From the NCBI RefSeq assembly GCF_001528665.1, contig NZ_BBYJ01000004.1:310472-374471 (forward strand): a stretch of DNA of 64,000 nucleotides. Direction: 5' to 3'. Numbering within the stretch: position 1 is the first letter of the stretch; each line of letters opens with the position of its first letter. Positions 13,592 through 48,261 of this stretch are shown here, piece after piece. The notes under the pieces were generated by a model that worked only from the letters and a program-made list of their open reading frames with translations, had not been told where the DNA came from and made no database searches. Source of the DNA: Microtetraspora malaysiensis. GTDB lineage: Bacteria > Actinomycetota > Actinomycetes > Streptosporangiales > Streptosporangiaceae. Both the position numbers and the translations under genes were made by a program.

Positions 13592-13714
13592 CTTGTTCCC
13601 TCCTGGAACGGCACACCACGACCCGTCTAGGCGCCCCCGCTCGCCCACCGTCTCATCGAACGGCCACGAGCCGGACATTTGCCTGAAACATACAAAGCGC
13701 CACATATAAGAGCA

Positions 13715-13730: not shown

Positions 13731-13925
13731 GATGCAAAAAAGTGACAGCAATGCGAATCTCCATGGCAGCGCCCATCGATCGCCGACGGCATGAGGAGGG
13801 GCGGCATCGGGCCCGGATCAGGGGGTCACCCGGGCGGGATCGGCCGACGTGACCGGCCAAGGCGGGACCGGCCCAGGCGGGACCGGACGCGCGGGACTGG
13901 GCCACACGGGCGGGAGAGACCGGGC

Positions 13926-14954
13926 TCAGGCGGGATCGGCCGGCGCGGGTCCCGTGGAGGAGCGTACGACCAGCTCGGGCTCGAACAGCAGCTCGTCACC
14001 CGGGACGGCGCCCGCGCGGATCTGCGAGACGAGCAGTTCGACGGCGGCCCGCCCCATCGCCTCGATGGGCTGGCGCACGGTCGTCAGCGGCGGATCGGCG
14101 CAGTTCATCAGCGCCGAGTCGTCGTAGCCGACGACGGAGACGTCCCCCGGGACCGACAGCCCGGCCCGGCGGGCGGCGCGGATCGCGCCGAGGGCCAGCA
14201 CGTCGCTGGCGCAGGCGATGCCGGTGACGCCGCGCCGCACCAGCCGGGCCGCCGCGGCGTGGCCGCCCTCGATCGAGAACAACGCGTGCTCGACCTGCTC
14301 GGGGCCCAGCTCCAGCCCCTTCTCCTCCGCGAACGCCCGGAACGCGGCGAGCTTGCGCCGGGACGGCACATGGTCGGGCGAGCCGAGCAGGATGCCGACG
14401 CGACGGTGGCCGAGGGCCAGCAGGTGGGCGAGCGCCATCTCGGCGGCGGCCACGTCGTCGCAGGAGACCTGGGGGAAGCGCAGGTGCTCGACGGCGGCGT
14501 TGACCAGCACGATGGGGAGCCCCCGCTCCCGCACCCGCTCGTAGTGCGTGTGTGACGCGTTGCCCTGGGCGTACAGGCCGCCGGCGAAGACGATGCCGGA
14601 CACGTGCTGCTGGAGGAGCAGATCGACGTAGTCGGCCTCCGAGACGCCCCCGACCGTACGGGTGCAGAGCACGGGCGTGAATCCCTGCTGGGCCAGCGCT
14701 CCGCCGACGACCTCGGCGAACGCCGGGAAGATCGGGTTCTGCAGCTCCGGGAGCACCAGGCCGACCAGGCGGCCCCGCTCCCCGCGCAGCCGCGAGGGCC
14801 GCTCGTACCCGAGCACGTCGAGGGCGGTGAGCACGGCCTCTCTGGTCGCGTCGGACACGCCGGGCTTGCCGTTGAGGACGCGGCTGACCGTCGCCTCGCT
14901 CACGCCCACCTTCTTGGCCACTTCCGCAAGCCGTCGCGTCATGAACGCAAGCAT
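13926..14954 (-). CDS. LacI-family transcriptional regulator (paralog 1)
   Basis: HTH MTRRLAEVAKKVGVSEATVSRVLNGKPGVSDATREAVLTALDVLGYERP; sugar-binding core. Confidence 0.8.
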   Translation of the reverse strand: MLAFMTRRLAEVAKKVGVSEATVSRVLNGKPGVSDATREAVLTALDVLGYERPSRLRGERGRLVGLVLPELQNPIFPAFAEVVGGALAQQGFTPVLCTRTVGGVSEADYVDLLLQQHVSGIVFAGGLYAQGNASHTHYERVRERGLPIVLVNAAVEHLRFPQVSCDDVAAAEMALAHLLALGHRRVGILLGSPDHVPSRRKLAAFRAFAEEKGLELGPEQVEHALFSIEGGHAAAARLVRRGVTGIACASDVLALGAIRAARRAGLSVPGDVSVVGYDDSALMNCADPPLTTVRQPIEAMGRAAVELLVSQIRAGAVPGDELLFEPELVVRSSTGPAPADPA

Positions 14955-30877: not shown

Positions 30878-30886
30878 CAGCGCTGT
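30839..30886. repeat. 12-bp tandem repeat x4 (atgagcacaccg on minus strand) encoding MSTP MSTP MSTP MSTP at the 5' end of the giant ATPase gene
   Basis: cat at 30839-41, 30851-53, 30863-65, 30875-77 on plus strand, each followed by the same 9 bases. Confidence 0.85.
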
Positions 30887-30926
30887 CGTGGGCGCGTCAC
30901 GTGGTCCTCGGTGCCGGGTCGCACCA

Positions 30927-33074
30927 TCAGTGCTTCGCCGAGTTGGCCGGCGCCGAACCGGCCTCGGCCGGTGCACCGGTTCTCGAGCCGGCCGCCGTAC
31001 CCGTCGCCCCGGCGACGGCCGAGAGCGACCGGTCGGCGACGCCGAGGCTGCGGGCGGCGCTCAGCAGATCCTGGAGCTTGCCCGCGTCCGGGCCACCCGC
31101 GTTGATCAGCTTCAGCAGCACGGCCGAGAGCGTGAGGTTCCGTACGTCGGCGGTGTCCACCGAGCCGACGAGGCGCATCAGGTCCGCGGGCAGGCTCGCC
31201 GTCCCGTCCAGGTATGGCCCGGCCAGCGCCCGCGTCACCGCGGAGTTCTCGACGAAGCCGTCCACGCTCCGGCCCGCCGTGATCGAGTTCATCAACCGGT
31301 CGAAGAAGACGGTGTCGCCGCCCACGATGTCGATGTCGGCGTTCTCCAGGCCCGCGGCGAGCACGGTCGCCTGGGCGTCCGCGATCTCCCGCTGGACGTC
31401 GATGTTCTTGAGGCGGATCTCCTTCTCGGCCTCCAGCCGCAACCGGTACTCCTCGTGGCCCCGGCTCGCCTCGTCGAGCGCCGCCATGGCCTCGGCCTTC
31501 TCCTTGAGGCCCTCCGCCTCCGCCTTCAGCTTCTCGCCCACGGCGGCGGCAGCGGCGAGGGCCTTCGCCTGCTCGCCCTCGGCCTCCGCCTTGAGCCGCT
31601 CGCCGACGGCGAGCGCGGCGGCCAGGCCCTTCTCCCGCTCCACGGCGGCCTCCGCGCGCCCGACCTTCTCGATCGCCTCGGCGTCCCGTTCGCGTACCTG
31701 CACCTCGGCGAGCCCGGCGGCCGCCGCCTCGGCCCGCAGCCCCTCCGCGAGGCGGATCTTGGCCTGGCTGTCGAGCTCGGCCGCCTGCTGCCGCGCCTCG
31801 GCCAGGACGAGTTCCTCGCGCGCCTTGAACGTGGCCGCCTGCTCCGCGGCCTCGGCCGCCTTGATGTCCTTGACCAGGTTCTCCTGTGCCTCGGCCTCCG
31901 CCTGGATCACCAGCGCCTGACGGACCCGCTCGGCCTCCTCGACGACGCGCAGGCGCTTGATGTTCTCCTCCTGCTCGGCGACCGTCTTCTCCACGGCGAT
32001 CCGCTCGCGGGTCACTTCGGCGATGGCCCGCCGCTCGACTTCGAGCTCCTTGTCCTTGGAGATGCGCGACAGCTCGGTCTCCCGCTCGCGGGAGATCACC
32101 TCCAGCAGGCGATCCTTCTCGATCCGCTCGCTCTCGATGGCGATGACCCGCTCGCGGTTCTTCCCCGCGACCTGGATCTCCCGCTCGCGGTTCTCGCGCT
32201 GGATGCCGAGCTGCTCCTCCGTACGGATGTTGGCCGCCTCGAACTTGAGCCGCTCCTCCGCCTGCACCCGGGCCGTCTCGGCCTCCTCCCGCGCCCGCAC
32301 GGTGTCGATCTCGCGCCGCTGCTTGGCCTCGGCGTCGGCCTGCCGCCGCTCCAGTTCGAGGATGGCCTCCCGCGCGTCGACGTTCTGGCGGGTGATCTCC
32401 TTCTCCTCGTTGCGCTGGTACTCATTGGTGCGCACGTGCTCGATCGCCGTCAGCTCGGTGATCTTCCGGATGCCCTGCGCGTCGAGGATGTTCGCCGGGT
32501 CGAGCTGGGCGAGCGGGGTCTGCTCCAGGAAGTCGATCGCGGCGTCCTCCAGGCTGTAGCCGTTCAGGTCGGTTCCGATCACCCTGATGATCTGGTCCCG
32601 GAATTCGTCGCGCTTGGTATAGAGATCGACGAAATCGAGCTGCTTTCCGACCGTCTTGAGCGCCTCGGAGAACTTGGCGTTGAACAGCTCCTGCAAGGTC
32701 GTCTCGTCGCTCGCGCGTACCGTGCCGATCGCCTGCGCGACCTTGATCACGTCTTCGACCGTCTTGTTGACCCGTACGAAGAACGTGATCCGGATGTCCG
32801 CCCGGATATTGTCGCGACAGATCAGCCCTTCATGCCCGGTACGCGTGATCTCAATGGTCTTCACGGAGATGTCCATCACCTCCGACTTGTGGAGAACGGG
32901 AAGCACGACGGCGCCCGTGAAGGTGACATCGACCCGCCGCGTCTTGGAGACGATCAGCGCCATGCCCTGTTCGACCTTGCGATAGAGGCGGCTCACGACG
33001 ACGACCGCGCCGATGACGACAAGAAGGAGAACGGCGAGAAGCACGCCCGTCCCGGTGCTGATCACATCCACCAT
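30927..33074 (-). CDS. Flotillin (SPFH/band-7 family) protein with long coiled-coil EA-repeat C-terminal region
   Basis: N-terminal TM helix, SPFH domain (ALIVSKTRRVDVTFTGAVVLPVLHKSEVMDISVKTIEI...), extended Glu/Ala/Arg coiled-coil typical of FloT/YuaG. Confidence 0.85.
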   Translation of the reverse strand: MVDVISTGTGVLLAVLLLVVIGAVVVVSRLYRKVEQGMALIVSKTRRVDVTFTGAVVLPVLHKSEVMDISVKTIEITRTGHEGLICRDNIRADIRITFFVRVNKTVEDVIKVAQAIGTVRASDETTLQELFNAKFSEALKTVGKQLDFVDLYTKRDEFRDQIIRVIGTDLNGYSLEDAAIDFLEQTPLAQLDPANILDAQGIRKITELTAIEHVRTNEYQRNEEKEITRQNVDAREAILELERRQADAEAKQRREIDTVRAREEAETARVQAEERLKFEAANIRTEEQLGIQRENREREIQVAGKNRERVIAIESERIEKDRLLEVISRERETELSRISKDKELEVERRAIAEVTRERIAVEKTVAEQEENIKRLRVVEEAERVRQALVIQAEAEAQENLVKDIKAAEAAEQAATFKAREELVLAEARQQAAELDSQAKIRLAEGLRAEAAAAGLAEVQVRERDAEAIEKVGRAEAAVEREKGLAAALAVGERLKAEAEGEQAKALAAAAAVGEKLKAEAEGLKEKAEAMAALDEASRGHEEYRLRLEAEKEIRLKNIDVQREIADAQATVLAAGLENADIDIVGGDTVFFDRLMNSITAGRSVDGFVENSAVTRALAGPYLDGTASLPADLMRLVGSVDTADVRNLTLSAVLLKLINAGGPDAGKLQDLLSAARSLGVADRSLSAVAGATGTAAGSRTGAPAEAGSAPANSAKH

Positions 33075-33086: not shown

Positions 33087-33647
33087 CTATTGAAGGTCGT
33101 AAGGCATGACCAAGAAGAACTCGCCCTCCGGGTCATAGTCGAAGATCAGAGCGGAGCTGCCGGCACGCAGATCCTCGTCTCCGGTCTGGCGCACCTGCAC
33201 AAGGGCCGAGGAGCCGTCATCGGCCGTGACCTCGGCCTGACCGAAGTCGTGCCCGACCCGTCCCGTGCGGATGACGCACATGCGGCCGACGAAATCGGCC
33301 CGGGACGGCGAAGCCACCGCGGGGAACAGGGCGCGGCTCGCCCGCGCGACCAGGCGGGCGCAGAGCCATCCGGCCAGCAGCGCGACCACGAGCACCGCCC
33401 ACCGAGCGGGAGGCCCCTCGGCCAGCACCACGCCGACCAGGCTGACGAACCAGGCGACCACGACCAGCAGCGACAGCGCCACGGCACCCGGCACTCCCCG
33501 TAGGCCGAGACCGGCGAGGAAATCGTCGGGGAGCTCCATCCCGAGTCCGCCGAGCAGCACGAGCGCCCAATAGACGATGACGACGATCAGCATGAAGCTG
33601 AACAGCACCGCCGGAAACTCCAGCACCGCATCGACGAACCGCGCCAT
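33087..33647 (-). CDS. NfeD-like membrane protein (flotillin partner, YuaF-like OB-fold)
   Basis: Three to four TM helices then C-terminal beta OB-fold (GRMCVIRTGRVGHDFGQAEVTADDGSSALVQVRQ...); 13 bp upstream of flotillin on same strand. Confidence 0.7.
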   Translation of the reverse strand: MARFVDAVLEFPAVLFSFMLIVVIVYWALVLLGGLGMELPDDFLAGLGLRGVPGAVALSLLVVVAWFVSLVGVVLAEGPPARWAVLVVALLAGWLCARLVARASRALFPAVASPSRADFVGRMCVIRTGRVGHDFGQAEVTADDGSSALVQVRQTGDEDLRAGSSALIFDYDPEGEFFLVMPYDLQ

Positions 33648-33831: not shown

Positions 33832-35964
33832 TCAGCGGATGGTCTGCCGCTCGGTCAGGGCGGCATACCGGCCGCCGTGCCGCATCAGCTCGTCGTGGGT
33901 GCCCCGTTCGACGATCCGGCCCCTCTCGACGACGAGGATCTGGTCGGCGTCGCGCACCGTGCTCAGCCGGTGGGCGATCACGATGCGGGTCTGGGTCAGC
34001 CAGGCGAGGTTCCGCTCGATCGCGGCCTCGGCGGCGGTGTCGAGATGGCTCGTCGCCTCGTCGAGCAGCAGGACCCTGGGCTGGGGCAGGAGCGCCCGCG
34101 CGAGCGCGATCCGCTGCCGCTGCCCGCCGGAGATGCCGCTGCCCTCAGTGAGCATCGTCTCGTACCCCATGGGCATGGCCATGATGTCGTCGTGGACGCA
34201 GGCCATCCTGGCCGCCGCCACCACCTGCTCCAGCGAGGCGTCGGGAACGGCCAAGCCGATGTTGTCCCTGATGGTCCCGGTGAAGAGGTGCGGCTCCTGG
34301 GTGACCACGCCGAAGCGGCTACGCAACCAGCGCGCGTCGATGTCCCACGCAGGCATCCCGTCGTACCAGACGTCACCCTCGACCGGCTGGTACAGGCCCA
34401 GCAGGATCCGTCCCAGCGTGCTCTTGCCCGACCCGGAACTGCCCACCAGGGCGATCTTCTGCCCGGGTCCGACCGCGAGCGACACGTTCCTGACCGTCCA
34501 TGGGGAGCGCGGGTCGAAGCGGAATCCGACATCCCGGAGGACCACCTCTCCGCGCAGGTGCGGCCGCTTCCTGCCTCTCCGCTCGGGCTCGGCCTCGACG
34601 ATGTCGGCCAGCCGCTCGAAGTGCGCCCCTGCCTCCTGGAGCTCCTGCAGGCTGGTCAGCAGCGAGGTCAGCGGGGTGAGGGTGGACATGGCCAGCGCGT
34701 TGAGCGCGAGCATGGTGCCCAGAGTCAGCTCGCCGTCGAGCACCCGTGACGCGCCCACGAGCAGCAGCAGCGCGGGACCGAGGACCCTGATCCCCGACAG
34801 GACCGCATCCAGGGCCCCGCGGGTCAGGCCGAGACGCACGTCGGCGTTCATCTGGGCGGTGAACATCCTGGACCACCGCTCCATGGCACGCCATTCGGCG
34901 CTGGACGCCTTGATGGTCTCGATGCCTCCGATGGACTCGATGAGCCGGCCCTGGGTCGTGGCGGCGGCGGTCAGCTCGCGCCCGGTCAGGTCGGCGATCC
35001 GCCTCCGGGTGGCCAGCAGCAGCGCGACCTGGACGACCGCCACGGCGAGCAGGCATCCTCCGAGCACGGGATCGCCCAGGAGGACCAGAGTCATGAGGAC
35101 CGCGGCCATCGGACCGTCGAGCAGCGCGGAGAGCGCCTGGCCGGAGAGCATGGCCCGGAGGCTGGCCGCGCTCTGCGTGCTCATGACCAGGTCGCTCGTC
35201 CCCCTGAGGGTGAAGAACCGGTAGGGCAACGTGAACAGGTGCCCGACCACACCCGCCGTGAACTGGGTGTCCGCCCGCGCCCGCAACATGAGCAGCACGG
35301 CCGTACGGAGGTACGTGAGGATCGCCTGGATGAGCACCACGAAGCCGAGCCCCACGATGAGGATCCGCAGCAGATAGCGGTTCCCTCCGGGAAGTACCTC
35401 GTCGACGACGAGCCCGGAGAGCAGGGGAAGGACGAGGGTGACGCCCTGCAGCAGCAGGGACGCGAACAACCCCTGGAGCAGCAGGCCTCGGTGGCGGGCC
35501 AGCAGGGCGCGGACCAGGTCCCGGCGCCACGGGCGGCGCTGCGGGCCCCGGACGTCGAACTCGGGGCCGGGTTCGAAGGCCAGGACGACCCCGGTGAACC
35601 CGACGTCGAACTCCTCCGGCGTGAGCCTGCGCCGCCCGGAGGCGGGATCGACGACCTCGACGACGTCCGGGCGCCAGCGCTCGACGACCAGGAAGTGGTT
35701 GAACTCCCAGTGCACGATGAAGGGCCCGGGCACCGCGCCGAGCTGCTCGGGGGCGAGCGAGAACGCCTTGACGCGCAGGCCGTACGATCTGGCGGCCTCC
35801 GCGACGGCCGACGCGCTCAGCCCGTCCCGCGACACCTGGACGTGCTCGCCGACCTCGCGCACGGTCGTGCGGCGTCCGTGGTGCCTGAGAACCATCGCCA
35901 GGCAGGCGGCGCCGCAGTCGGCCATCGTGGCCTGCCTGATCACCGGTACCCGCCCGCGCCTCAT
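33832..35964 (-). CDS. Peptidase-C39-domain ABC transporter (bacteriocin/RiPP leader-cleaving exporter)
   Basis: N-terminal C39 papain-like domain with catalytic Cys context QATMADCGAACLAMV; 6-TM ABC exporter domain; nucleotide-binding domain with Walker A GSSGSGKST, signature LSGGQRQR, Walker B LLLDEATS. Start ATG 35962-64 overlaps upstream stop (ATGA). Confidence 0.85.
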   Translation of the reverse strand: MRRGRVPVIRQATMADCGAACLAMVLRHHGRRTTVREVGEHVQVSRDGLSASAVAEAARSYGLRVKAFSLAPEQLGAVPGPFIVHWEFNHFLVVERWRPDVVEVVDPASGRRRLTPEEFDVGFTGVVLAFEPGPEFDVRGPQRRPWRRDLVRALLARHRGLLLQGLFASLLLQGVTLVLPLLSGLVVDEVLPGGNRYLLRILIVGLGFVVLIQAILTYLRTAVLLMLRARADTQFTAGVVGHLFTLPYRFFTLRGTSDLVMSTQSAASLRAMLSGQALSALLDGPMAAVLMTLVLLGDPVLGGCLLAVAVVQVALLLATRRRIADLTGRELTAAATTQGRLIESIGGIETIKASSAEWRAMERWSRMFTAQMNADVRLGLTRGALDAVLSGIRVLGPALLLLVGASRVLDGELTLGTMLALNALAMSTLTPLTSLLTSLQELQEAGAHFERLADIVEAEPERRGRKRPHLRGEVVLRDVGFRFDPRSPWTVRNVSLAVGPGQKIALVGSSGSGKSTLGRILLGLYQPVEGDVWYDGMPAWDIDARWLRSRFGVVTQEPHLFTGTIRDNIGLAVPDASLEQVVAAARMACVHDDIMAMPMGYETMLTEGSGISGGQRQRIALARALLPQPRVLLLDEATSHLDTAAEAAIERNLAWLTQTRIVIAHRLSTVRDADQILVVERGRIVERGTHDELMRHGGRYAALTERQTIR

Positions 35965-36149
35965 CGCCCCGCTCCGAGCGCGGGAAGGACGCCGATCAGC
36001 ACCACGGCCGCCATCGCCATCGCGAGCAGCCCGACGTAGATCCACAGGCCGACCAGGAGCCTCCTGGAGATCCGGTACGGCCGCTCGACGCGCCGCCGGG
36101 CGGCCATGTGGTGGTGAACCGCCTTCTCCCGGTACGGAAGTCCCGTCAT
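35961..36149 (-). CDS. Small single-TM membrane protein (62 aa) translationally coupled within the graspetide operon
   Basis: ATG 36147-36149 overlaps the stop of the upstream parvulin-like gene (ATGA), and its own stop overlaps the ABC transporter start (ATGA). Sequence MTGLPYREKAVHHHMAARRRVERPYRISRRLLVGLWIYVGLLAMAMAAVVLIGVLPALGAGR has one hydrophobic helix. Confidence 0.45.
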   Translation of the reverse strand: MTGLPYREKAVHHHMAARRRVERPYRISRRLLVGLWIYVGLLAMAMAAVVLIGVLPALGAGR

Positions 36150-37198
36150 GTGCCGGCCCGCCCGGCCGTACCGGTCGAGTTCGCGACGCCGGAAGAGCCG
36201 GACGCGGCGGTCCGGTCCGCGGTCCCCCAGAACCATTCGATCTTGGCCGTGCTCCTGCGCCGCTCGATCCATTCGGCGAAGATCCGGCGCTCGACGAGCT
36301 CGCGCACGGTCCCGTCGAGAACGGCGGGCTCCACGGCCAGCACCTTGATCAGCAGGTGACCGTGTTCCGTCGCGAAAGGACCGGTGACCGTCCCCGGCGC
36401 GGCTCCGAAGACCCGGCCGGCCGTCTCTGGGCTCAGGTCCCCTCTGCGCAGCGTGGCGAACACCTCGCCCGGCCGTGCCGTGCCGTCCGCGAAAGCCCGC
36501 TCCGCGGCGTCGAGGAACCCGTCGGCGGCCGGCACGCGCGGCCCTTCGGTGAACTCCACCCGCGCGACGCGGGCGACGTCGAACTCGTGACCGTGCGCGG
36601 CGAACCAGTCATCGACCCGGCCGGCGGCCACCCGCGACCGGAGTCCGGCCACGGACGCCTCAAGGACGACCAGCTCCTCCAGCTCGTGGTGGGAGATGTG
36701 GTTGCGGTCCATCCATGCCCGGACCGCGCCGCCGGTCAGCAGCCCACGCGCCCGGCGGAACGCGTCCATCGCCTCCTGGAGCTCCGCGTCGGTCAGCGGT
36801 TCGGGCTCCTCCTCCCGCACCTCACGTACGAGGCTGTCGGTGACGAGGCGGTCGGCCAGCCGCGACTCGTCCCAGATGAAATCCAGGCAGGCGATCGCCC
36901 TGGCCACCGGGGTCTCGACACCGTTGACCCGGAGCAGCAGGTGCTCACCGGCCCGGTGGACACCGCGCAGCGGCCAGGGCAACGCCCGGTCGGGGCACCA
37001 GGAGAGGGAGATCGTGGCGCCGTCGCGTTCCTTGATGAGCAGAGCGTGATGGAGCGATCCGTCATATTCCTCACGCTGGGCGACCAGCCGCACCCGCGCC
37101 CCCGGGTACCGCGCCCTGAAGCCATCGAGGTCGTGCCCGGCCGTACCGGCGCCGAGCATGTCGATCGCCTCGGCGAGCATCCGTCCGTCCGTCACCAC
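36146..37198 (-). CDS. Peptide-maturation-system protein with C-terminal PpiC/parvulin-like domain
   Basis: C-terminal GEVFATLRRGDLSPETAGRVFGAAPGTVTGPFATEHGHLLIKVLAVEPA resembles parvulin rotamase fold; start GTG 37196-98 overlaps ATP-grasp stop (GTGGTGA); family of accessory proteins reported next to SAV_5884-type ATP-grasp RiPP maturases. Confidence 0.55.
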   Translation of the reverse strand: MVTDGRMLAEAIDMLGAGTAGHDLDGFRARYPGARVRLVAQREEYDGSLHHALLIKERDGATISLSWCPDRALPWPLRGVHRAGEHLLLRVNGVETPVARAIACLDFIWDESRLADRLVTDSLVREVREEEPEPLTDAELQEAMDAFRRARGLLTGGAVRAWMDRNHISHHELEELVVLEASVAGLRSRVAAGRVDDWFAAHGHEFDVARVARVEFTEGPRVPAADGFLDAAERAFADGTARPGEVFATLRRGDLSPETAGRVFGAAPGTVTGPFATEHGHLLIKVLAVEPAVLDGTVRELVERRIFAEWIERRRSTAKIEWFWGTADRTAASGSSGVANSTGTAGRAGT

Positions 37199-38157
37199 GT
37201 CACTCCGCTCATGAGCAGCTCGCCGACCGCCGCGCCGATGGGCAGCCCGGTCGCGTCCTCGATCCAGAGGAACTGGCCGTTCGGATTGATCTCCAGGAAG
37301 ACATGGCGGCCGTCCGGCGTGAGGATCAGGTCGATCGCGCCGTAGGCCAGCCCGAGCCGCTCGACCAGATCCAGGCACCGCTGGGAGATCTCCGGCGGCA
37401 GGTCGTGCGCCCGGATGGGCGTCGCGCCGGGGTCGTAGTGTCGCCAGTCGTACCGGGTGTGGTTGCTCACCTGGGAATGGATCTCCGCGGCGAAGACCTT
37501 CCTGCCCACCACGGTCACGCGTATCTCGACCCGCTTGGGCACGTACGCCTGGACGATGACCGGGCAGAAGCGCAGGGCGTCCGCGTAGGCGACGTCCACA
37601 GGGGTGACGGGGGCCGCGAACCGGCCGAACCGCTCTCCCTCCGCTTCGAGCTGGTTGCCGTGCACGGGCTTGGTGATCACACGGCCCTCGTGCCGGTCGT
37701 AGAAGTCGAGAAAACTCTCGGGGTCGGTCGTGACCAGCGTCGCGGGGAGCTCAAAGCCCAGCCGCCTGGCCAGTTCGAGCTGGTACGGCTTGCGCGCCGC
37801 GCGGTCGATGACCGGCCGGGAGCCGGGAACCGTGAGGCAGCCGAGGCTGTCCCAGAGGCTCTCGGCCATGACGCGGCACTCCTCCTCCACGTAGTCGCGG
37901 GCGGCGACCCTCGGATGCGCGACCGGGTCGAGGGGCCTGCGGTACCAGAGCGCGGTCACCTCGTCGAGGACGAGGCGGCGGCCCGCGCGGCCGAACATCC
38001 GGCTGGTCGAACCATCCCCGGAGTGGCTGATCTCGAGGGTGGCGGCGGTCGGGAAGGAGGCGGGATCGAAGACGACGACATCCGCGCCCGCGGTCATGAG
38101 CGGTTTCACGACCCGGTCGGCGTGCTCATCTCCGTCAGAGGTCAGGACGAGGATCAT
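37192..38157 (-). CDS. ATP-grasp ribosomal peptide maturase (MvdD/MdnC-like; graspetide macrolactone/lactam ligase)
   Basis: Start MILVLTSDGDEHADRVV (hallmark N-terminus of RiPP ATP-grasp ligases), ATP-grasp fold motifs (VITKPVHGNQ, EIHSQVSNHTRYDWRHYD, GAIDLILTPDGRHVFLEINPNGQFLWIE); 50 bp downstream of precursor gene. Confidence 0.8.
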   Translation of the reverse strand: MILVLTSDGDEHADRVVKPLMTAGADVVVFDPASFPTAATLEISHSGDGSTSRMFGRAGRRLVLDEVTALWYRRPLDPVAHPRVAARDYVEEECRVMAESLWDSLGCLTVPGSRPVIDRAARKPYQLELARRLGFELPATLVTTDPESFLDFYDRHEGRVITKPVHGNQLEAEGERFGRFAAPVTPVDVAYADALRFCPVIVQAYVPKRVEIRVTVVGRKVFAAEIHSQVSNHTRYDWRHYDPGATPIRAHDLPPEISQRCLDLVERLGLAYGAIDLILTPDGRHVFLEINPNGQFLWIEDATGLPIGAAVGELLMSGVTW

Positions 38158-38206
38158 CGGCGGGGCTCCGGACGGGGGCGCGACGCGGTCGCGCCCCCGC
38201 GGCGAA

Positions 38207-38356
38207 CTAGTTGCTGTCGCCGGAGGTGTGCGTGTGGTTGCCGCAGATCTCGATGACCTGGCTCTTGGCGCCACCGCTCACCTGAAGAAGCTGACCCTCG
38301 TCGAGCTCCGGACCGAAGGCCGCGATGTCGTCGAGGGTGGTACGCGTCTTGCTCAT
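38207..38356 (-). CDS. Graspetide precursor peptide (49 aa) with double-glycine leader
   Basis: Ribosome-binding site GGGAGAAAGG 10 bp before ATG 38354-56. Sequence is MSKTRTTLDDIAAFGPELDEGQLLQVSGG / AKSQVIEICGNHTHTSGDSN: leader ends in GG (substrate for the C39 transporter), and the core carries Thr/Ser hydroxyl donors and Asp/Glu acceptors. Confidence 0.7.
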   Translation of the reverse strand: MSKTRTTLDDIAAFGPELDEGQLLQVSGGAKSQVIEICGNHTHTSGDSN

Positions 38357-38538
38357 GCGTATCCCCGCCTTTCTCCCGTACGGGGGCACCTGATGCGCCC
38401 CGTTGCACCGAGCAAGCTAGGCGAGCGGCACCTGGCCGGGCGTCCGTCGCGCGGGTGATCTTGTGTCATCCCGGCGGGGGGCGCGGATCGGGGTTCCGGG
38501 TGTTTCCATCCCTGGTTTCCGGTCCGACCCCGACGTAT

Positions 38539-38553
38539 ATGAGCGCAGCTCAT
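38539..38553. promoter_or_regulatory. 6-3-6 inverted repeat ATGAGC gca GCTCAT in the promoter region of the graspetide operon
   Basis: Read directly, about 185 bp upstream of precursor start. Confidence 0.3.
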
Positions 38554-38655
38554 GCGGGTTCGCCGGCCCTCACCCCTCACCCCGGCCACGTGATTCCGCC
38601 CGAACCGACCGAGCGTCCCAACGGGGCGGGGAGCCGACGCTGACCGGGGCCTGCG

Positions 38656-39546
38656 TCAGCGGACGCGGCCGACCATGCGCGCGTACATACGGCCGGGACT
38701 CGGCACTGAGGGCGGGTGCAGGAAGCCCGGCAGCATGGGCAGGTCGACGGAGAAAGGCTGCAGTCGCTCGTAGAGCGTGACGGCGTCGGCGGGGCGATTC
38801 TCCGGCTGCTTCTCCAGCAGCTCGGCGATCAGCCGGTCGAGCTCGACCGGGACGTCGGGCACCGACGGCGGGCGTTCCTTCACCTGCTTGTCGAACACGG
38901 CGTACTCGGTCGGCCCCGTGAACAGCGGCTTGCCGGTCAGCATCTCGTGCAGGACACAGCCGAGAGCGTAAAGATCGCTCTTCGGGCCGGCGACGCCGCG
39001 CTGGATCTGCTCCGGCGACATGTACGCGGGGGTGCCGAGGATCTGCCCGACCCGGGTGAACTGGGCGCCGTCCGACTCGCGCAGCATCGCCAGACCGAAG
39101 TCGAGGACCTTGACGCTGCCGTCGGGGCAGAGCATCAGGTTCGTCGGCTTGAGATCACGGTGACAGATGGACAGCGCGTGCGCCGCGGTCAGCACCGCGC
39201 ACGCCTGGGCGGCGATCGCCGCGGCCCACGGGACCGGGAGCGGGCCATATTCGCTGACCAGGTCGGCGACCGTGACGCCCTCGATGAACTGCATCACCTG
39301 GAAGAGGCGCTGATCGTACGTGCCGAAGTCGTAGAGGACGGGCGCGCCCGGATGCTCCAGGCGGGCGAGGATGCGCGCCTCTCGGATGAACCGGCGCTCC
39401 AGCTCCTCGTCATGACCACCCGGAAAGCGGAGGAACTTCACCGCCACCTTGCGGTCGAGACGCCTGTCGTGGCCGCCGTAGACGGCCCCCATGCCGCCCT
39501 GGCCGAGAGGAAGGTCGTCCAGCTCATACCGGTCACCGATGACCAT
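38656..39546 (-). CDS. Ser/Thr protein kinase (catalytic domain only, 296 aa)
   Basis: [33 protein letters not shown] motifs; 38 bp downstream of the methyltransferase gene on the same strand. Confidence 0.8.
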
Positions 39547-39584
39547 CCGCCCCTCCCGTCGGACTTTCGGGAAAAGCTACACCT

Positions 39585-41696
39585 TCACGCGCGCGGTCGT
39601 AGACGGCCGTCAACCAGCCCCTCCAACCCCAGCCGGATCAGCGCCTCGCCCGCGTCGGCCACTTCCCTGATCGCGTCCTCCAGTTCGGCGAGCCGCCGGA
39701 AGGCCGCCCCGTACGCCCGCTGCTCGACCAGCGGGAGCCGCGGGACGCGAGCCCGGCGGACGTCGACGCGGCTGGCTCCCGGGTGCGCCCGGGCGGCCGC
39801 GTACCGCAGGAATCCGGCGAGGAAGTCCGCGTCGAGCCGGGACCGATCCACCTGGTAAAGCGAGAGCTGCGGGCCGAGGACGGCGCCCGGCTGGTGGATC
39901 ACGCGTGCGGTCGTCGTCGAGGCCACCACGTCTCCGGCCGCCACCGTGACGATGCCGGGCTCACTGCCGGAGCGACCGGACGGCGTCCCGCCTCGGGCGA
40001 GGTCGTCGGCGGTCAATACGTTGAGATCTCCGCTGTCCGCGGTTTTCAGCACCGAATGCCGCACCGTCACCATCCCGGCCTTGGCCAGATCGGTGATGGC
40101 GGTCGTGGGGAGGCCGGCTCGCCCGGACAGCACCTCCAGGTCGGGCAGCGCCCCCGCCGCCTCGGCCAGCACCTCGGCGAGGTCGCGGAGCCCGCGCCCG
40201 GCGGCGGGATAACGCTGCGCGTCGCCACGTGAGGAGACGTGCCGGGCCGGGCTGACGTCCACCTCGTCGTCGAGCAGATCGATGATCCGTACGATCCGGG
40301 CAGAGCGCGGCAACTCGCCTGCCGAGGCCACCGCCGCGGCCTGCCTCGCAACGCCACCGGACGTCCGGCCTTCGGCCACCGAACCGGCGGCCGGCCCGCG
40401 TCGGGCGGCTTCCGGCGCTGCGGGACCGGCCGTGTCCGTGCCGGCGAAACCTTCGCCGGCCGTAGGACTCGTGCCGACGTAACCCGCGTCGGCCAGGTAG
40501 GTCCACCAGGCCGACTCGACGATCGAGAGGTCGTCGGAGGCGTCGGCGAGCAGGATCGACGCCGGGGAGGGCGCCCCCGCCTCCGGCCGGCGCAGCAGCC
40601 AGAGATCCGGCCCCGCGGCGGACAGGCCGATGACCGCGCGCAGGGCTCCGGCGCGGAGCAGGTTCGCGCGGATCCGACGGCCGGAACGCCGGGCCGCGGC
40701 CGCGGCCGGCATCAGGATCGCCACCAGGCCGCCGGGACGCGCGTGGGCCAGGCAGTGCTGGACCCAGGCCAGCTCCGGCTCGCCGCGCGGGGGCACGCCG
40801 TAGTCCCAGCGCGGATCGCCGATCAGCTCCTCGTGGCCCCACGCCCGCTCGTTGAAGGGCGGGTCGCACAGCACCACGTCCGCCCGCTCGCCCTCGAATC
40901 CGTCGTGCCGTAACGAGTCGCCCGCCACGACGCGCGCGTTCGCGTCGCGCAGGAGGAGCCGCAGCGAGGCGAGCAGAGCAGAGGTCTCGTTGATCTCCTG
41001 GCCGAGCAGACGCACCGGCGGCGCACCGGGCGGCGCGCCGTCGAGGACGGCGGTGTCCGAGACCGCGAGCAGGAGCGTTCCCACACCGACCGCCGGGTCG
41101 AGGATCGCGCCTCCTTCGGGACACGCCTGGCGCGCGAGCCGCGCCATGAGCGACGCCACCTCGCCCCGCGTGACCGCGAGCCGCCGGGTGTGCGCCTCCA
41201 CGTAGCGCTCGCAGACGAACTCGAACGCGGTGGCCGGTCCGTGGAGCGCGGACAGGTCCGCGATCCACCGGATGAGCTGCGCGTCCTCCAGGACGCTCCC
41301 CGGCCGGGCCGGAAGGTCGGCCGTGGCCGCCGCGACCTCGCGCGGCAGCCGTACGACCAGGTCGGGAGCGGCGGCGAGCCGGCGCCAGCCGTCGGGATCC
41401 CGTCGCGCGTAAAGGAGGAACGCCCCCGCGAAACCGCTGAGCTCGCCCAGCCGGAGGTCGTCCACGGCGGCCCTGAGCCCCTGCCAGACACGGTCGCCCA
41501 GCGACACCTCGAAGGACTTGCCGTTCCTGCGCAGCCACTCCTCGATCTCGGGCAGCGAGAACAGCGGGCTGGACGCGGTGCCGCCCACCGGGTGGGGAAA
41601 GTCCTCATACCGACGGCGCCAGTTGCTCACCGCGGCCCTCCCGACGTCGGCTAGGCGGGCGATGTCGCCCGCGTTCACTGTGGCGTCGTGGCTCAT
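39585..41696 (-). CDS. N6-adenine DNA methyltransferase fused to HsdS-like target-recognition domain, with N-terminal HTH
   Basis: Motif I ILDPAVGVGTLL, motif IV LCDPPFN (gamma-class N6A methyltransferase); C-terminal PRLPLVEQRAYGAAFRRLAELEDAI resembles the conserved HsdS helix; N-terminal MSHDATVNAGDIARLADVGRAAVSNWRR HTH. Start set to ATG 41694-96 to leave a divergent promoter. Confidence 0.7.
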   Translation of the reverse strand: MSHDATVNAGDIARLADVGRAAVSNWRRRYEDFPHPVGGTASSPLFSLPEIEEWLRRNGKSFEVSLGDRVWQGLRAAVDDLRLGELSGFAGAFLLYARRDPDGWRRLAAAPDLVVRLPREVAAATADLPARPGSVLEDAQLIRWIADLSALHGPATAFEFVCERYVEAHTRRLAVTRGEVASLMARLARQACPEGGAILDPAVGVGTLLLAVSDTAVLDGAPPGAPPVRLLGQEINETSALLASLRLLLRDANARVVAGDSLRHDGFEGERADVVLCDPPFNERAWGHEELIGDPRWDYGVPPRGEPELAWVQHCLAHARPGGLVAILMPAAAAARRSGRRIRANLLRAGALRAVIGLSAAGPDLWLLRRPEAGAPSPASILLADASDDLSIVESAWWTYLADAGYVGTSPTAGEGFAGTDTAGPAAPEAARRGPAAGSVAEGRTSGGVARQAAAVASAGELPRSARIVRIIDLLDDEVDVSPARHVSSRGDAQRYPAAGRGLRDLAEVLAEAAGALPDLEVLSGRAGLPTTAITDLAKAGMVTVRHSVLKTADSGDLNVLTADDLARGGTPSGRSGSEPGIVTVAAGDVVASTTTARVIHQPGAVLGPQLSLYQVDRSRLDADFLAGFLRYAAARAHPGASRVDVRRARVPRLPLVEQRAYGAAFRRLAELEDAIREVADAGEALIRLGLEGLVDGRLRPRA

Positions 41697-41753
41697 GACG
41701 ACAAGCTTAGCTGGAGCTTGTGAAGTCATTCAACCAGTGCTTTACTCAAAAGC

Positions 41754-42485
41754 ATGACGCACAACCGACTTCGCTACGCCGCGGGATCCGACGTCGGACG
41801 TTCCCGGAAGAAGAACGAGGACTCGTTCCACGCCGGCGAGCGACTGCTCGCCATCGCCGACGGGATGGGGGGTCACGGCCACGGAGAGGTGGCAAGCGCG
41901 GCGGCGATCTCCGCCCTCGTCCTCCTGGAAGAAGGGCCTTTCCCCGAGGACGCCGTCGCCGCCCTCGACGAGGCGGTGCAGGAGGCCAGCCGCAGGTTGC
42001 GAGATCTGGCGGTCCGAGATCCGGCCCTTGAACGGATGGGCACCACCATCACCGCGATGCTCTGGGACGGCTCCCGCTTCGCGCTGGCCCACGTGGGCGA
42101 CTCGCGGGCGTACATGCTGCGTGACGGCGCTCTGTACCAGATCACCCGTGATCACACGCTTGTCCAGTCTCTGGTGGACGACGGCCGGATGAGCCCCGAT
42201 CAGGCGGCGAAGCATCCCAACCGGTCCCTCCTGTTGCGTGCGGTGGAGACGAGCGGCCTGGCCGACCCCGACCTCTCGCTTCGCGGAGCACACCCCGGCG
42301 ACCGCTATCTGCTCTGCTCCGACGGGCTGACCGCCGTGCTCGATCCCGAGACGCTGCATCGTGTGCTCACCACGGTCGCCGATCGGGAGGAGGCCGTGCG
42401 TCACTTCATCGAGTTGGCCAACGAGGCGGGCGGCCCCGACAACATCAGCGTCATCGTCGCCGACGTCGACGCGGTTCCGGCCTGA
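41754..42485 (+). CDS. PP2C-family Ser/Thr protein phosphatase
   Basis: DVGRSRKKNEDSF...ADGMGGHGHGEVAS...DSRAYML...LLCSDGL: canonical PPM motifs. Confidence 0.85.
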   Translation: MTHNRLRYAAGSDVGRSRKKNEDSFHAGERLLAIADGMGGHGHGEVASAAAISALVLLEEGPFPEDAVAALDEAVQEASRRLRDLAVRDPALERMGTTITAMLWDGSRFALAHVGDSRAYMLRDGALYQITRDHTLVQSLVDDGRMSPDQAAKHPNRSLLLRAVETSGLADPDLSLRGAHPGDRYLLCSDGLTAVLDPETLHRVLTTVADREEAVRHFIELANEAGGPDNISVIVADVDAVPA

Positions 42486-42747
42486 CTCGTACGGCCCGGC
42501 CGGGCGAGGCAGGAGATCCGCCGAGGACGACGCGAGGCGAGATCCGGCCCGAGCTCGGCCGGCCGTCACAGCCGCGGGTGGGGCGGCTGGACCGCTCTCC
42601 GTTCTCGCCCTGGGCGCACGCACAAGCGTCACGATCTCATACGTCGGCTCCGCCTCCCACCTCCGACAGGCGACGGAGTGGCCATCAGCCTCCGATCACG
42701 AACGGAACGCACCCGCCGTCCGCCGGTCACCGGTCACCGGTCACCGG

Positions 42748-43416
42748 TCAGGGGCGGAAGCGATAGCCCATGCCGGGCTCGGTGATGAGGTGCACGGGGT
42801 GGGCGGGATCCTGCTCCAGCTTGCGGCGGAGCTGTGCCATGTACTGCCGGAGGTAGTGCGTCGCCGTCACATACGTGGCACCCCACACCTCGGTGAGCAT
42901 CTGACGCTGGCTGACCAGCTTCTCGGGGTTGCGCAGCAGGATCTCCAGCAGGTGCCACTCCGTCGGGGTGAGCCGTACGCCGCTCGAGATCGTCTTGTCG
43001 GCCAGGTTGATCGTGTGGTCGCCGATCCGCACCACCGGGGTCTCGGCCTGCTGCGCCGCCGCACGGCGTGTGGCGGCGCGGACTCGGGCGAGCAGTTCGT
43101 CGAGGCCGAACGGCTTGGTGACGTAGTCGTCAGCCCCCGCGTCGAGGGCGCTGACCGCGTCGGCGCTGCCCACCCGGCCGGTGAGCACGATGATCGGCAC
43201 CTGGCTCCACCCGCGCAGGCCGTGGATCACGTCGATGCCCTCGATGTCCGGCAGGCCCAGGTCGAGCACGACAAGGTCGGGATGCCAGTCGGCGGCCTGG
43301 CGTAGCGCGGAGCCGCCGTCCGCGGCGACCGCCACCTCGTAGTGCCGGGCGGCGAAGTTGATGCGCAGCGCGCGGAGGATCTGCGGCTCGTCGTCGACGA
43401 TGAGGATCTTGGTCAT
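42748..43416 (-). CDS. kdpE: KdpE response regulator (OmpR family)
   Basis: 222 aa; receiver domain (ILIVDDEPQILRAL...DLVVLDLGLPD) plus winged helix; immediately downstream of and overlapping kdpD (ATGA). Confidence 0.85.
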   Translation of the reverse strand: MTKILIVDDEPQILRALRINFAARHYEVAVAADGGSALRQAADWHPDLVVLDLGLPDIEGIDVIHGLRGWSQVPIIVLTGRVGSADAVSALDAGADDYVTKPFGLDELLARVRAATRRAAAQQAETPVVRIGDHTINLADKTISSGVRLTPTEWHLLEILLRNPEKLVSQRQMLTEVWGATYVTATHYLRQYMAQLRRKLEQDPAHPVHLITEPGMGYRFRP

Positions 43417-46332: not shown

Positions 46333-48261
46333 TCAGCCCACGTGGACATGGGGGCGGCGCGCCGGGTCCGGTTCGGCTTCGCGCAGCACCTCGCGGGTCA
46401 TCCCGGGCACGTCACCGCCGCCGAAGACCAGATAGCGCAGCATCGCGACCACCGGATTCCCCTCACCCCAATGGAAGTAGATGTTCGGCACCTCGCCGGT
46501 GCGGTCGCGGATGTACAGCAGGAGCGCGGCCAGGGCGTTCGGCACCGTGGCGCTCTCGATGCGGAGGATCCGGTGGCCGTAGCGCACGTCCCCCCTGACC
46601 CGCAGCTCGCTGCGGAACTGGGACGCGTCCTGCACGGTGACCTCGACGAACATGACCGGCTCCGAGCTGCGCAGCCGGTGCGTGTACCACTGCTCACGGA
46701 GCTTGGCGTTGTATTCCGCCTGGTCGCGGCGGCGCGGGTCGTTCGCGATCAGATGGATCTCGCCGGTGGACTCGGCGATGAACTCCTGGGCGAGCGTGTC
46801 GAGACGCACGTCGGACACCCGCAGCTCGGTGGAGCGGGTGGCCCGCGAGATCAGCGACATCACGATGATCGCCGCGATGAACAGCGCCCCGATCTTCACG
46901 CCCTCGGGGCGCCCGCGGATGTTGTCCGCCAGCGTGTACGCGAGGACCAGGGTGATCAGCCCGAAGACCCGGGTGCGGCCGTGCCGTCCGGCCCGGTAGG
47001 CGTCCACGGTGACGGCAACGCCGGCGGACAGGAACAGCACCAGAACGCCGGTGGCGTACGCGCCTCCCTGGGCGTCCACACTGGCGCCGAAGGCGAGCGT
47101 GATGGCGAACGAGACGACCGTGAAGACGAGGACCAGCGGGCGCACGGCGCGGGTCCAGTCGGGGGCCATGCCGTACCTGGGCAGGTAGCGCGGCACGAGG
47201 TTGATCAGGCCGGCCAGCGCGGAGGCGCCGGCGAACCACAGGATGCCGATGGTGCTGACGTCGTACAGCGTGCCGAAGCCGTTGCCGAGGTAGGCGTGCG
47301 CCAGGTAGGCCAGGGCTCGGCCGTTGGCCTTGCCGCCGGGCTGGAACTCCTTCTCCGGGATCAGGATGATCGTGGCGAAGCTGCTGCAGATGAGGAACAC
47401 GCTCATGATCAGTGCGGCGGTGGTCAGCAGCCGCTTGGCGTCGCGGACGCGTACCGGCAGGTCGCCCTTGATGAGCGGCATCACCGCCACGCCCGTCTCG
47501 AATCCGGACAGACCGAGCGCCAGCCGGGGCATCACCAGCAGCGACACGCCGAGCAGGCCCAGCGGACTGGCGTGTTGCACGGTGAGCATCCGCTCCCAGT
47601 CCACGATCAGGCCGGGATGCGCCAGGATGTACAGGATCGTCCGCACGACCACGACGGCGTTCAGGACCAGGTAGACACCGACCACCAGTACGGCGACGCC
47701 GATGGCCTCGGTGAAGCCCATCAGGAACACGGCGGAGAGCAGGGCCAGCAGGAAGATCGTGACCGCGACCTGCTGGCCGGAGAGCGCACGCGGGACGAAG
47801 GGGTTCTCCAGGATGTGCGCGGACGCGTCGGCCGCCGACAGCGTGATCGTGATGACGAAGTCGGTGGCCGCGAAACCCAGCAGAACCAGCACGACCAGCT
47901 TGCCCCACCAGCGCGGCGCGAGCCCTTCCAGCATCGCGATGGAGCCCTGGCCGTACGGGCTCTCGACGGCCACCCGGCGGTAGACGGGCAGCGCGCCGAG
48001 CAGCGTCAGCAGCACGAGCAGGATGGTGGCCACCGGGGAGACGCTCCCGGCCGCCAGTGCGGCGATGCCGGGCTGGTAACCGAGGCTGGAGAAGTAGTCC
48101 ACCCCCGTGAGGCACATGACGCGCCACCAGGAGTACTGCTTCTCCGGGGATTGCGAGCCGTGCGGCCCCAGGGCCCGCAGATCCTCCTGCTGGAGACCCT
48201 CCATCAGCCATGCGCGAAGCGGCCCCCTACGCGCCACCTCACGCCGTGCCGACCCGGCCAA
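46333..48261 (-). CDS. APC-superfamily permease with C-terminal cytoplasmic domain (start uncertain)
   Basis: About 12 predicted TM helices with APC-type glycine-rich TM1/TM6 regions, about 200-aa soluble tail; N-terminal about 40 aa of the ORF may not be translated. Confidence 0.6.

Follow-up and report, generated by a model that had tools for sequence, protein, structure and literature searches.

What is a DNA methyltransferase doing between a protein kinase and a protein phosphatase? The question is raised by a locus in a 64-kb stretch of Microtetraspora malaysiensis DNA (contig NZ_BBYJ01000004.1, positions 310,472 to 374,471; the whole stretch is hereafter called the window), where a solitary N6-adenine DNA methyltransferase and a cytosolic Ser/Thr kinase form one operon, transcribed divergently from a PP2C-type Ser/Thr phosphatase. 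To our knowledge, DNA methylases linked to protein kinases are limited to a small number of defence systems that are themselves little understood (Pgl/BREX type 2 and MADS), which raises the question of how phosphorylation and methylation communicate in them. An earlier note on this DNA had likened the three genes to the components of Pgl/BREX, and had suggested either a compact defence or epigenetic module or phosphorylation-controlled methylation.

The comparative evidence presented here indicates that the three genes are a real co-conserved module, which we read as one functional unit. Both a functional analogy to Pgl/BREX (i.e., methylase, kinase and phosphatase acting together) and phosphorylation-controlled methylation remain viable. 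The reading we favour, while holding it tentatively, is that the trio constitutes a DNA adenine methylation module that is passed on vertically, is normally silent, is gated by phosphorylation and regulates itself, and that it belongs to a family of methyltransferase-kinase modules of filamentous actinomycetes.

Gene calls

The genes were called from a listing of open reading frames (ORFs) together with an analysis of third-position GC content (GC3). All three lie at the coordinates given in the earlier note, and its figures of 703 aa for the methyltransferase, 38 bp for the gap to the kinase and 57 bp for the divergent region all hold. The longest methyltransferase ORF spans 714 aa (39585-41729). 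The N-termini of 47 homologues (MSxDATVNAG), the NCBI gene models and promoter geometry all speak for the 703-aa start at 41696, and the divergent intergenic region is therefore exactly 57 bp long. The 38-bp gap between the methyltransferase stop and the kinase start contains the kinase's own Shine-Dalgarno ribosome-binding site (GGGAGGGG). The coordinates of all features are presented in Table 1.

Co-conservation of the three genes

The homologue pool comprised 412 methyltransferase clusters (50% identity) at E<1e-30. Contigs from one genome per species yielded more than 600 matching stretches, from which 80 loci were kept, all of them in Actinomycetota. Gene context was analysed in 86 related loci, and the intergenic element described below was scanned for in 91. 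A kinase adjoins the methyltransferase in 65 of the 86 loci and a PP2C does so in 44, with the complete trio present in 40 (group A); no fourth gene was found to be co-conserved family-wide in the 86. Group A presents a divergent PP2C, the methyltransferase and then a kinase of about 300 aa, an arrangement found in eight Streptosporangiaceae genera (Microbispora, Streptosporangium, Nonomuraea, Thermocatellispora, Planotetraspora, Sphaerisporangium, Acrocarpospora and Microtetraspora) and, within Pseudonocardiaceae, in Amycolatopsis, Tamaricihabitans and metagenome-assembled genomes. Its flanks are unrelated between most genera. Given the arrangement recurs in 40 independent loci, the adjacency is not due to chance, and the co-conservation on which the earlier note had made its proposal depend is present.

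The three proteins also diverge together: over the 780 pairs formed by the 40 group A loci, their pairwise identities correlate with r=0.84-0.92. The kinase is the most conserved of the three, averaging 79% identity and falling no lower than 60% over two orders, a constraint like that on housekeeping genes, and the mean identities of the methyltransferase and of PP2C are 57% and 63%, respectively.

It might be supposed that the locus is a neighbourhood formed by chance, i.e., a decayed remnant of a Type I restriction-modification (R-M) system beside an ordinary kinase and an ordinary phosphatase. Actinomycete genomes carry dozens of Ser/Thr kinases, the window itself holds a second, unrelated one (590 aa, 4756-6528, + strand), and solitary family members with no kinase exist, all of which would suit such a reading. 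It is nonetheless barely credible in view of the identical order and orientation in 40 loci from two orders with unrelated flanks, the correlated divergences, the conserved intergenic element and the specific tail motif of the kinases, and a single recent transfer is excluded by minimum identities of 42-60%.

A second arrangement (group B) pairs the methyltransferase with a kinase of 500-650 aa that bears a C-terminal TPR domain, lacks PP2C, and is found in Actinomadura, Micromonospora, Streptomyces and Actinoallomurus. Exceptions to the trio were observed as well. Microbispora rosea subsp. aerata has two NPPF-type methyltransferases of the family, with neither kinase nor PP2C adjacent, and Actinoalloteichus has PP2C and the methyltransferase, with an amidohydrolase in the kinase's place.

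Evidence for vertical inheritance

The window is actinomycete chromosomal DNA of about 71% GC, and the local GC content of the trio is similar to that of the remainder. Methyltransferase identity follows taxonomy, amounting to 97% within species, 78-91% within genus and 53-61% between genera. Synteny is kept in several cases: M. niveoalba keeps the kdpDE flank, Planotetraspora and Microbispora share both flanks (the trio there lies beside rodA-pbp2-mreCD), 11-12 Nonomuraea loci are syntenic, and the Amycolatopsis loci are also syntenic within their genus. Among 72,556 plasmid and 50,697 phage records, members of the family are all but missing. In Streptosporangiaceae, the target recognition domain (TRD) of the methyltransferase has a mean identity of 57% and is always at least 45% identical, so the recognition specificity is probably conserved, unlike that of arms-race specificity domains. 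This evidence shifts weight towards a vertically inherited, regulated module and away from a mobile defence module.

Architecture of the methyltransferase

The methyltransferase joins a winged helix-turn-helix (HTH), an HsdM core and a half-HsdS in a single chain. Pfam N6_Mtase matches residues 169-370 (E=2.7e-29), and the PADLOC MTase_I model PDLC03037 is matched over its full length (8e-91). The best solved relatives are M subunits of Type I systems, namely PacII (7vru_A, 1.3e-20), 3khk and EcoR124I, with HsdM hits in the PDB ranging from 1e-20 to 7e-8. The protein is 97% identical to an NCBI protein from Microtetraspora malaysiensis.

An AlphaFold2 (AF2) model built on 47 homologues reached a mean predicted local distance difference test (pLDDT) score of 84. 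It lays the chain out as a winged HTH (residues 1-60, with helices at 9-15, 20-29 and 48-57 and a strand at 44-47), a helical domain (66-170), a Rossmann core (178-403), a disordered linker (407-458) and a C-terminal beta-rich domain bracketed by long helices (466-703). The top Foldseek match of the model is the PacII M subunit (7vs4_A, 4e-18), and matches were also obtained to methylases that carry their own recognition domain, i.e., the intact V. vulnificus methyltransferase 7eew, BpuSI, M.BseCI, CamA and M.TaqI. No part of the protein is better conserved than the winged HTH, which matches the PADLOC mad1 model at 9e-7 and has a mean pairwise identity of 83% in Streptosporangiaceae and 58% family-wide; the corresponding values for the catalytic core are 71% and 48%. 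Linker length is variable, and many orthologues have no linker at all, as seen from alignment gaps.

Given that motif I precedes motif IV and that the recognition domain is C-terminal, the enzyme has the gamma-class order. Motif I and (D)PPF are nearly invariant in group A, where the region PPFNERAWG...PRGE.ELAWVQH is invariant. Of the 40 group A loci, 37 have D as the first residue of motif IV; family-wide it varies among N, D, H, S, A, T, E and Y, with PPF invariant. HPPF is found in three Streptosporangiaceae orthologues. A correlation of this residue with the presence of a kinase was looked for and gave no clean rule: group A has almost exclusively D and group B a mixture of N, H and D.

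The nature of the C-terminal module emerged from a profile of residues 462-703 (242 residues) compared with PDB sequences, which gave E=2e-13 for 5ybb_D and 3okg_A, both S subunits of Type I systems, and 7e-4 for 1yf2_A. The profile aligns to each of the two TRD halves of the S subunits, including their PlPPLeEQrrI motif and coiled-coil helix. Only this family profile brought the homology to the surface: Pfam Methylase_S gave no match to the C-terminal 237 aa alone, even at E<=1. A Streptomyces homologue matches the PADLOC Specificity_I model at 9.7e-5. The three parts that the earlier note had read from the sequence, i.e., an N-terminal HTH, a gamma-class N6-adenine core with DPPF and an HsdS-like TRD with its helix, are thus all borne out.

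Kinase and phosphatase

The kinase (Pfam Pkinase, E=1.1e-45) is a bare Hanks domain with intact catalytic motifs, including the Gly-loop and SPE, and with no extra domain. Its conserved C-terminal tail of 40 residues holds the motif PG.L.PP..SP.RMY..LGRV, which is common to the group A kinases and the kinase-TPR proteins of group B. On the PADLOC PD-T4-6 model PDLC04042 (292 positions) the kinase scores 7.5e-97; because 35 PADLOC kinase models match it, this strong match points to generic Hanks-kinase similarity.

The phosphatase matches Pfam PP2C_2 at 2.5e-13 and PP2C at 4.7e-12, retains all metal-binding motifs (NED, DGMGG, GDSR, SDGL and DN), and matches the PADLOC candidate system PDC-M21C. 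It had been described as a divergent PP2C, which is accurate for its direction of transcription but not for its sequence, given a score of 219.9 bits on the NCBIfam Stp1/IreP model, whose cutoff is 230.

The divergent intergenic region

The intergenic region contains an AT-rich, putative promoter/operator element of 31 bp with the consensus GCTTGTGAA(G/C)N4TCAACCA(A/G)TGNTTTACT, which ends 5-7 nt upstream of the PP2C start codon. The element is unique in the window, with zero chance matches expected and no second copy. Its degenerate core has exactly one match per locus of about 18 kb in 49 of the 91 loci scanned, and in every group A locus this match sits between PP2C and the methyltransferase. 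In Streptomyces, five loci of group B carry the element upstream of the methyltransferase, as a GTGAACCG-N8-CGGTTCAC inverted repeat, and two Actinomadura loci carry it upstream of a co-oriented PP2C. In Acrocarpospora catenulata, a copy (GCTTGTGAATGACATTCACAGATGCTTTACT) lies upstream of a gene for an SMC/ABC-type ATPase (802 aa, 11766-14249 of that locus), which is convergent with the kinase and has no counterpart in the other loci.

Read as a promoter, the element would supply PP2C with a -35 hexamer TTGTGA (41718-41723), a 17-nt spacer and a -10 hexamer TTTACT (41741-41746) located 7 nt before the ATG, a distance that implies a leaderless mRNA. On the opposite strand, a putative methyltransferase promoter would consist of a -10 hexamer TAAGCT (complement of 41704-41709), 7 nt before the ATG at 41696, and a -35 hexamer TTGAAT (complement of 41728-41733) that falls within the spacer of the PP2C promoter. 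Both divergent genes appear leaderless. As read from the sequence only, the divergent promoters would overlap in this genus, which would make transcription of PP2C and of the methyltransferase-kinase operon mutually exclusive. A sigma-70 consensus scan of 38200-42800 returned no promoter at the stringency of the scan, and the promoter reading is founded on conservation and spacing. The spacer is conserved as well as the hexamers, which suggests a binding site for a regulator. Since the element travels with the family and the HTH is the family's most conserved region, the simplest hypothesis is that the element is bound by the methyltransferase's own HTH.

The methylome of a relative

Streptosporangium roseum DSM 43021 carries the trio, with its methyltransferase (ACZ84573.1) at 1,676,555-1,678,465 of CP001814. 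Blow et al. 2016 list three methylase genes for this strain (PMC4752239, S3 table): Sros_7556, a classical Type I enzyme active on GTGAN5RTCG, which is the only motif found in the S. roseum genome; Sros_7831, an atypical type IIG enzyme that was not detected; and Sros_1580 (M.Sro43021ORF1580P), a type II enzyme of unknown specificity, reported as 'Not Detected'. Considering genome position and accession order, ACZ84573.1 is most likely Sros_1580. If this mapping is right, the enzyme gave no detectable motif in a standard culture, which argues against constitutive self-marking. Conditional activation, a very small number of target sites or a non-catalytic role would each agree with the 'Not Detected' entry. 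The earlier note had taken the lack of an N6-methyladenine (m6A) motif as a sign of an inactive enzyme. Such a lack is seen in part, for the probable orthologue in a relative's single-molecule real-time (SMRT) methylome, and conditional activity is still compatible with it. In the open-access literature, no methylome was found for Microtetraspora, Amycolatopsis or Nonomuraea.

The non-catalytic option deserves weighing on its own. The methyltransferase-like protein could be a DNA-binding regulator or sensor, with HTH and TRD as its DNA-binding parts and S-adenosylmethionine (SAM) as its ligand, that performs little or no catalysis, the kinase and PP2C signalling on it or on other targets. The conservation of the HTH above all other regions, the variable first residue of motif IV across the family, the lack of a methylation motif attributable to the probable S. 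roseum orthologue and the putative operator that travels with the family would all agree with such a role. The near-invariant motif I and (D)PPF of group A, together with the invariant region that follows, argue instead for a maintained active site, and a D at the start of motif IV is catalytically competent in Dam-type DPPY enzymes. Hence, we consider a non-catalytic protein quite unlikely.

Proposed mechanism and its weighing

In the silent, phosphorylation-gated module that we favour, two methyltransferase molecules would pair via the C-terminal HsdS helix, mimicking the M2S1 assembly of a Type I methylase, and the pair would read a symmetric bipartite site. Dimerisation and symmetric bipartite recognition are established behaviour of half-HsdS proteins. 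The winged HTH would bind the 31-bp element and would thereby set the transcription of PP2C and, via the overlapping divergent promoter, that of the methyltransferase-kinase operon. The kinase would phosphorylate the methyltransferase or a partner and turn methylation or DNA binding on, and PP2C would reset the system. The enzyme would be off in ordinary growth and would serve as a conditional epigenetic or signalling switch, not for the constitutive self-marking of a restriction system. The data show the domain architecture, the co-conservation, the co-evolution and the conserved element; we infer the helix dimerisation, the binding of the HTH to the operator, what the kinase acts on and that the enzyme is silent in this organism. 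The mechanism in its entirety, i.e., a family-core, Type-I-derived fusion kept silent and switched on by a dedicated Hanks kinase/PP2C pair through a self-bound operator, is possible and still doubtful. As to its origin, the trio probably derived from a defence-type methylase-kinase(-helicase) family.

Several observations weigh against this mechanism. The link of the kinase and PP2C to the methyltransferase is drawn from gene order and co-evolution only. No conserved Ser/Thr phospho-acceptor was identifiable in the methyltransferase, whose disordered linker is not conserved and whose family-wide invariants hold no Ser or Thr except the near-invariant S24 in the recognition helix. Family members with H, A, E or Y at the start of motif IV may be catalytically altered or inactive. 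The methylome evidence comes from one strain, at a coverage of about 39x by our reading of the table columns, and depends on a mapping by position and accession order. The only characterised systems with a methylase and a kinase that we know of, Pgl and MADS, are defence systems.

Gene context in parts of the family points the same way. In 10 group B loci, which come from five genera and include both orientations, the gene directly after the kinase encodes a UvrD-type helicase; it is an SF1 helicase of about 700-750 aa (Pfam UvrD-helicase, 2.5e-24), GajB-like in PADLOC. Its first 300 or so residues match nothing and are RelE/ParE-like by eye only. In Micromonospora sp. DSM 115977, the unit of methyltransferase, kinase-TPR and helicase comes directly after DrmMI, DrmA (2e-294) and DrmB (2e-69). 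The SMC-like ATPase beside the trio of Acrocarpospora catenulata is a defence-like context, some genomes carry two paralogues, a few of them one copy of group A and one of group B, and among the solitary methyltransferases without a kinase some adjoin an SNF2 helicase or a classical HsdM (i.e., a Type I methylase).

These contexts favour a nuclease-free, Pgl-like or abortive-infection defence, in which the fusion would detect or mark invading DNA, the kinase would signal via host or phage proteins and PP2C would keep the system off. The PADLOC matches to the PD-T4-6 kinase, to the mad1, mad2 and mad6 models and to PDC-M21C can be read likewise, and a silent host methylase would fit the logic of Pgl, in which the phage rather than the host reportedly gets modified. 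Defence sensors and specificity domains normally diversify, however, whereas group A is core-like: it occurs in most Streptosporangiaceae genera sampled, in stable synteny, with a kinase of 79% mean identity and a conserved TRD. In addition, plasmid and phage records essentially lack the trio's family, the window shows neither a defence island nor, among the ORFs scanned, an effector nuclease, helicase or ATPase, and the PADLOC matches of kinase and methyltransferase are generic, the NCBIfam MAD6 and PglW cutoffs being missed widely. A defence role for the trio, the main rival to the reading we favour, is therefore somewhat unlikely, in our judgement.

If the silent, switched fusion is real, it would be the first phosphorylation-gated switch of bacterial DNA methylation. 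It could serve development or stress epigenetics, or could have been domesticated, without a nuclease, from a methylase-kinase defence system with a helicase that Actinomadura, Micromonospora and Streptomyces still carry. As a domesticated regulator, it would represent a new conditional epigenetic control in antibiotic-producing actinomycetes, and a defence-type system turned core gene set. Automated defence annotators tend to label the kinase as 'PD-T4-6' and the methylase as 'Type I MTase', which is probably misleading in these genomes.

Neighbouring genes

The trio is flanked by kdpE/kdpD on the PP2C side and by a graspetide-like cluster for a ribosomally synthesised and post-translationally modified peptide (RiPP) on the kinase side. 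The earlier note had reported no nuclease or restriction partner, and this stands: no nuclease, HsdR or known defence protein was found among the 20 large ORFs beyond the trio that were scanned in the window, some GC3-supported ORFs being outside this set. The RiPP cluster (33832-38356, - strand) lies directly downstream of the kinase and is absent from the corresponding position in M. niveoalba. A functional link of the trio to kdpDE or to the graspetide cluster was rejected, given the different flanks in other genera.

A 642-aa ORF with good coding signal (46333-48261, - strand) adjoins kdpD, has no Pfam or PADLOC match, and is kept at the equivalent position in M. niveoalba (1468-3396 of locus L087). 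Further away, a gene for a 1,766-aa DUF3686/DUF7902/AAA ATPase (25676-30976, - strand) is preceded by two genes (30927-33074 and 33087-33647, - strand), neither of which has a Pfam or PADLOC match. In Streptosporangium roseum, the DUF3686 gene is found about 4 kb from the trio (1-1622 of locus L089). The proximity is probably a remnant of regional synteny and not a functional link.

Table 1. Features of the locus and of related loci. Coordinates refer to the window unless a locus is named.
Feature	Coordinates	Strand	Basis or remark
PP2C-type Ser/Thr phosphatase, 243 aa, soluble, single domain	41754-42485	+	Pfam PP2C_2, PP2C
N6-adenine DNA methyltransferase, 703 aa, solitary	39585-41696	-	Pfam N6_Mtase
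Cytosolic Ser/Thr kinase, 296 aa, kinase domain and conserved C-terminal tail	38656-39546	-	Pfam Pkinase
Winged HTH, residues 1-60, signature AAVSNWRRR..DFP.PVGG	41517-41696	-	AF2; PADLOC mad1 (9e-7)
Catalytic core, residues 171-405	40482-41186	-	N6_Mtase; PDB HsdM matches
SAM motif I DPAVGVG, residues 200-206	41079-41099	-	intact
Motif IV DPPF, residues 278-281	40854-40865	-	intact
Disordered Ala/Gly/Ser/Thr-rich linker, residues 406-461	40314-40481	-	pLDDT <50 at 407-458
Half-HsdS module, residues 462-703: one TRD, 'PRLPLxEQRxYG' motif and helix of about 40 residues	39588-40313	-	profile against PDB
Divergent intergenic region, 57 bp	41697-41753
AT-rich putative promoter/operator element, 31 bp, GCTTGTGAAGTCATTCAACCAGTGCTTTACT	41716-41746		conserved in the alignment of PP2C-methyltransferase intergenic regions
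RiPP precursor, 49 aa, MSKTRTTLDDIAAFGPELDEGQLLQVSGG|AKSQVIEICGNHTHTSGDSN, double-glycine leader	38207-38356	-
MvdD-type ATP-grasp ligase of the RiPP cluster	37192-38274	-
Weak rotamase-like ORF of the RiPP cluster	36146-37378	-
C39-peptidase ABC exporter of the RiPP cluster	33832-36045	-
Group B helicase loci	L026: 11742-14021; L022, L024, L027, L029, L030, L031, L033, L036, L037
Defence island in L026 (Micromonospora sp. DSM 115977)	Drm genes 1-7219; PDC-S29 candidate 14113-14799		candidate lies after the helicase unit
Exceptions to the trio	L059: 7839-9887; L057: 7962-9983; L028: 7986-9851

Comparison with known systems

With Type I R-M systems (HsdM2-HsdS1 methylases such as PacII M1M2S, 7VRU/7VS4, and the T. 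tengcongensis S subunit, 5YBB/3OKG), the trio shares an HsdM-type catalytic core and a C-terminal domain homologous to an HsdS TRD with its conserved helix. In the trio, however, M and half of S are fused, HsdM_N is replaced by a winged HTH and a helical domain, and the methyltransferase scores 31 bits on the hsdM equivalog TIGR00497, whose cutoff is 242.75. A single fused TRD is present, a separate HsdS gene with two TRDs was not found, and the partners are a Ser/Thr kinase and PP2C, with no HsdR among the scanned ORFs of the window and none in the 86 loci.

The stand-alone Hanks kinase invites comparison with the single-gene kinase defences PD-T4-6 and Stk2, the PD-T4-6 model being matched strongly. 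The trio's kinase differs in being paired with a methyltransferase and never alone in this family, and its conservation is far above what would be expected of a phage sensor. Membership in DISARM was considered and rejected: Drm genes turned up only beside one relative, a group B locus of Micromonospora that comes with a DrmMI of its own, and no Drm match was obtained in a PADLOC scan of the trio and 10 neighbouring ORFs (25676-49408).

A Hanks-type kinase with a PP2C also recalls Stk1/Stp1 and other pairs of the PknB/PstP type, on whose models PP2C scores 219.9 bits (Stp1/IreP) and the kinase 272.7 bits (PknB). Both values are under the respective cutoffs of 230 and 450; the kinase lacks PASTA domains and transmembrane segments, and its match covers the catalytic domain only. 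The housekeeping context of PknB/PstP is fhaAB-pstP-rodA-pbpA-pknAB, whereas the trio's kinase and PP2C have a DNA methylase between them that is inherited along with both, and no FHA, RodA or PbpA gene is adjacent in the window. The trio is hence not the housekeeping locus, a possibility the earlier note had raised against itself.

Among solitary methylases, Dam and CcrM likewise have no cognate nuclease, and the methyltransferase resembles them in its conservation throughout a clade with a conserved recognition domain. They differ in methylating abundant motifs, either constitutively or at one point in each cell cycle; for the probable S. roseum orthologue, no motif was detectable. Methylases of the M.SsoII type bear an HTH and regulate their own expression, and the trio's methyltransferase has, similarly, an N-terminal HTH and a conserved site in its own promoter region. 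An orphan methylase that has a kinase/phosphatase pair dedicated to it is not known to us. No published description of the trio was found in the open-access literature, including a paper on BREX diversity and a census of actinobacterial defence systems, which is not proof of novelty.

The closest parallels in gene content are with the systems that join a methylase to a kinase. MADS, the methylation-associated defence system, reportedly comprises mad1-mad8, eight genes in all. Three of these have counterparts in the trio: Mad1 is resembled by the small HTH, which is fused here (9e-7), Mad2 by the N6 methylase (3.8e-17) and Mad6 by the kinase (1.4e-62). The likeness is at the level of generic domains, given the kinase scores 127.6 bits on NCBIfam MAD6 (NF047741), whose cutoff is 460, and mad3, 4, 5, 7 and 8, which include an ATPase and a nuclease, are absent from the trio; within 10 kb on either side, the only matches to mad3 and mad8 are to the ABC-ATPase domain of the C39 peptide exporter.

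Pgl/BREX type 2 resembles the trio in combining a DNA methylase, a protein kinase and a phospho-hydrolase, and perhaps in methylating conditionally. PglW has about 1,600 residues, with a NERD nuclease, tandem kinase modules and wHTH domains (PMC12839542). The trio's kinase, by comparison, has 296 aa and a kinase domain only, and scores 47.9 bits on BREX_PglW, whose cutoff is 990. The phosphatase is a PP2C and not an alkaline-phosphatase-fold PglZ, the module has no PglX-type protein and no ATPase (PglY/BrxC), and the methyltransferase's 20 PADLOC hits are led by Type I models and include no BREX model. Homology is limited to generic domains, and the inheritance pattern of the trio is vertical. 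Taken as membership, the resemblance to Pgl/BREX drawn in the earlier note therefore fails. The trio can be seen as a minimal version of such a link between phosphorylation and methylation: made up of three soluble proteins, each small and of a single function, and of a control element of 31 bp, it occurs in at least 600 species-level genomes, is easy to reconstitute and could make the question of how the two communicate in Pgl/BREX type 2 and MADS a directly testable one.

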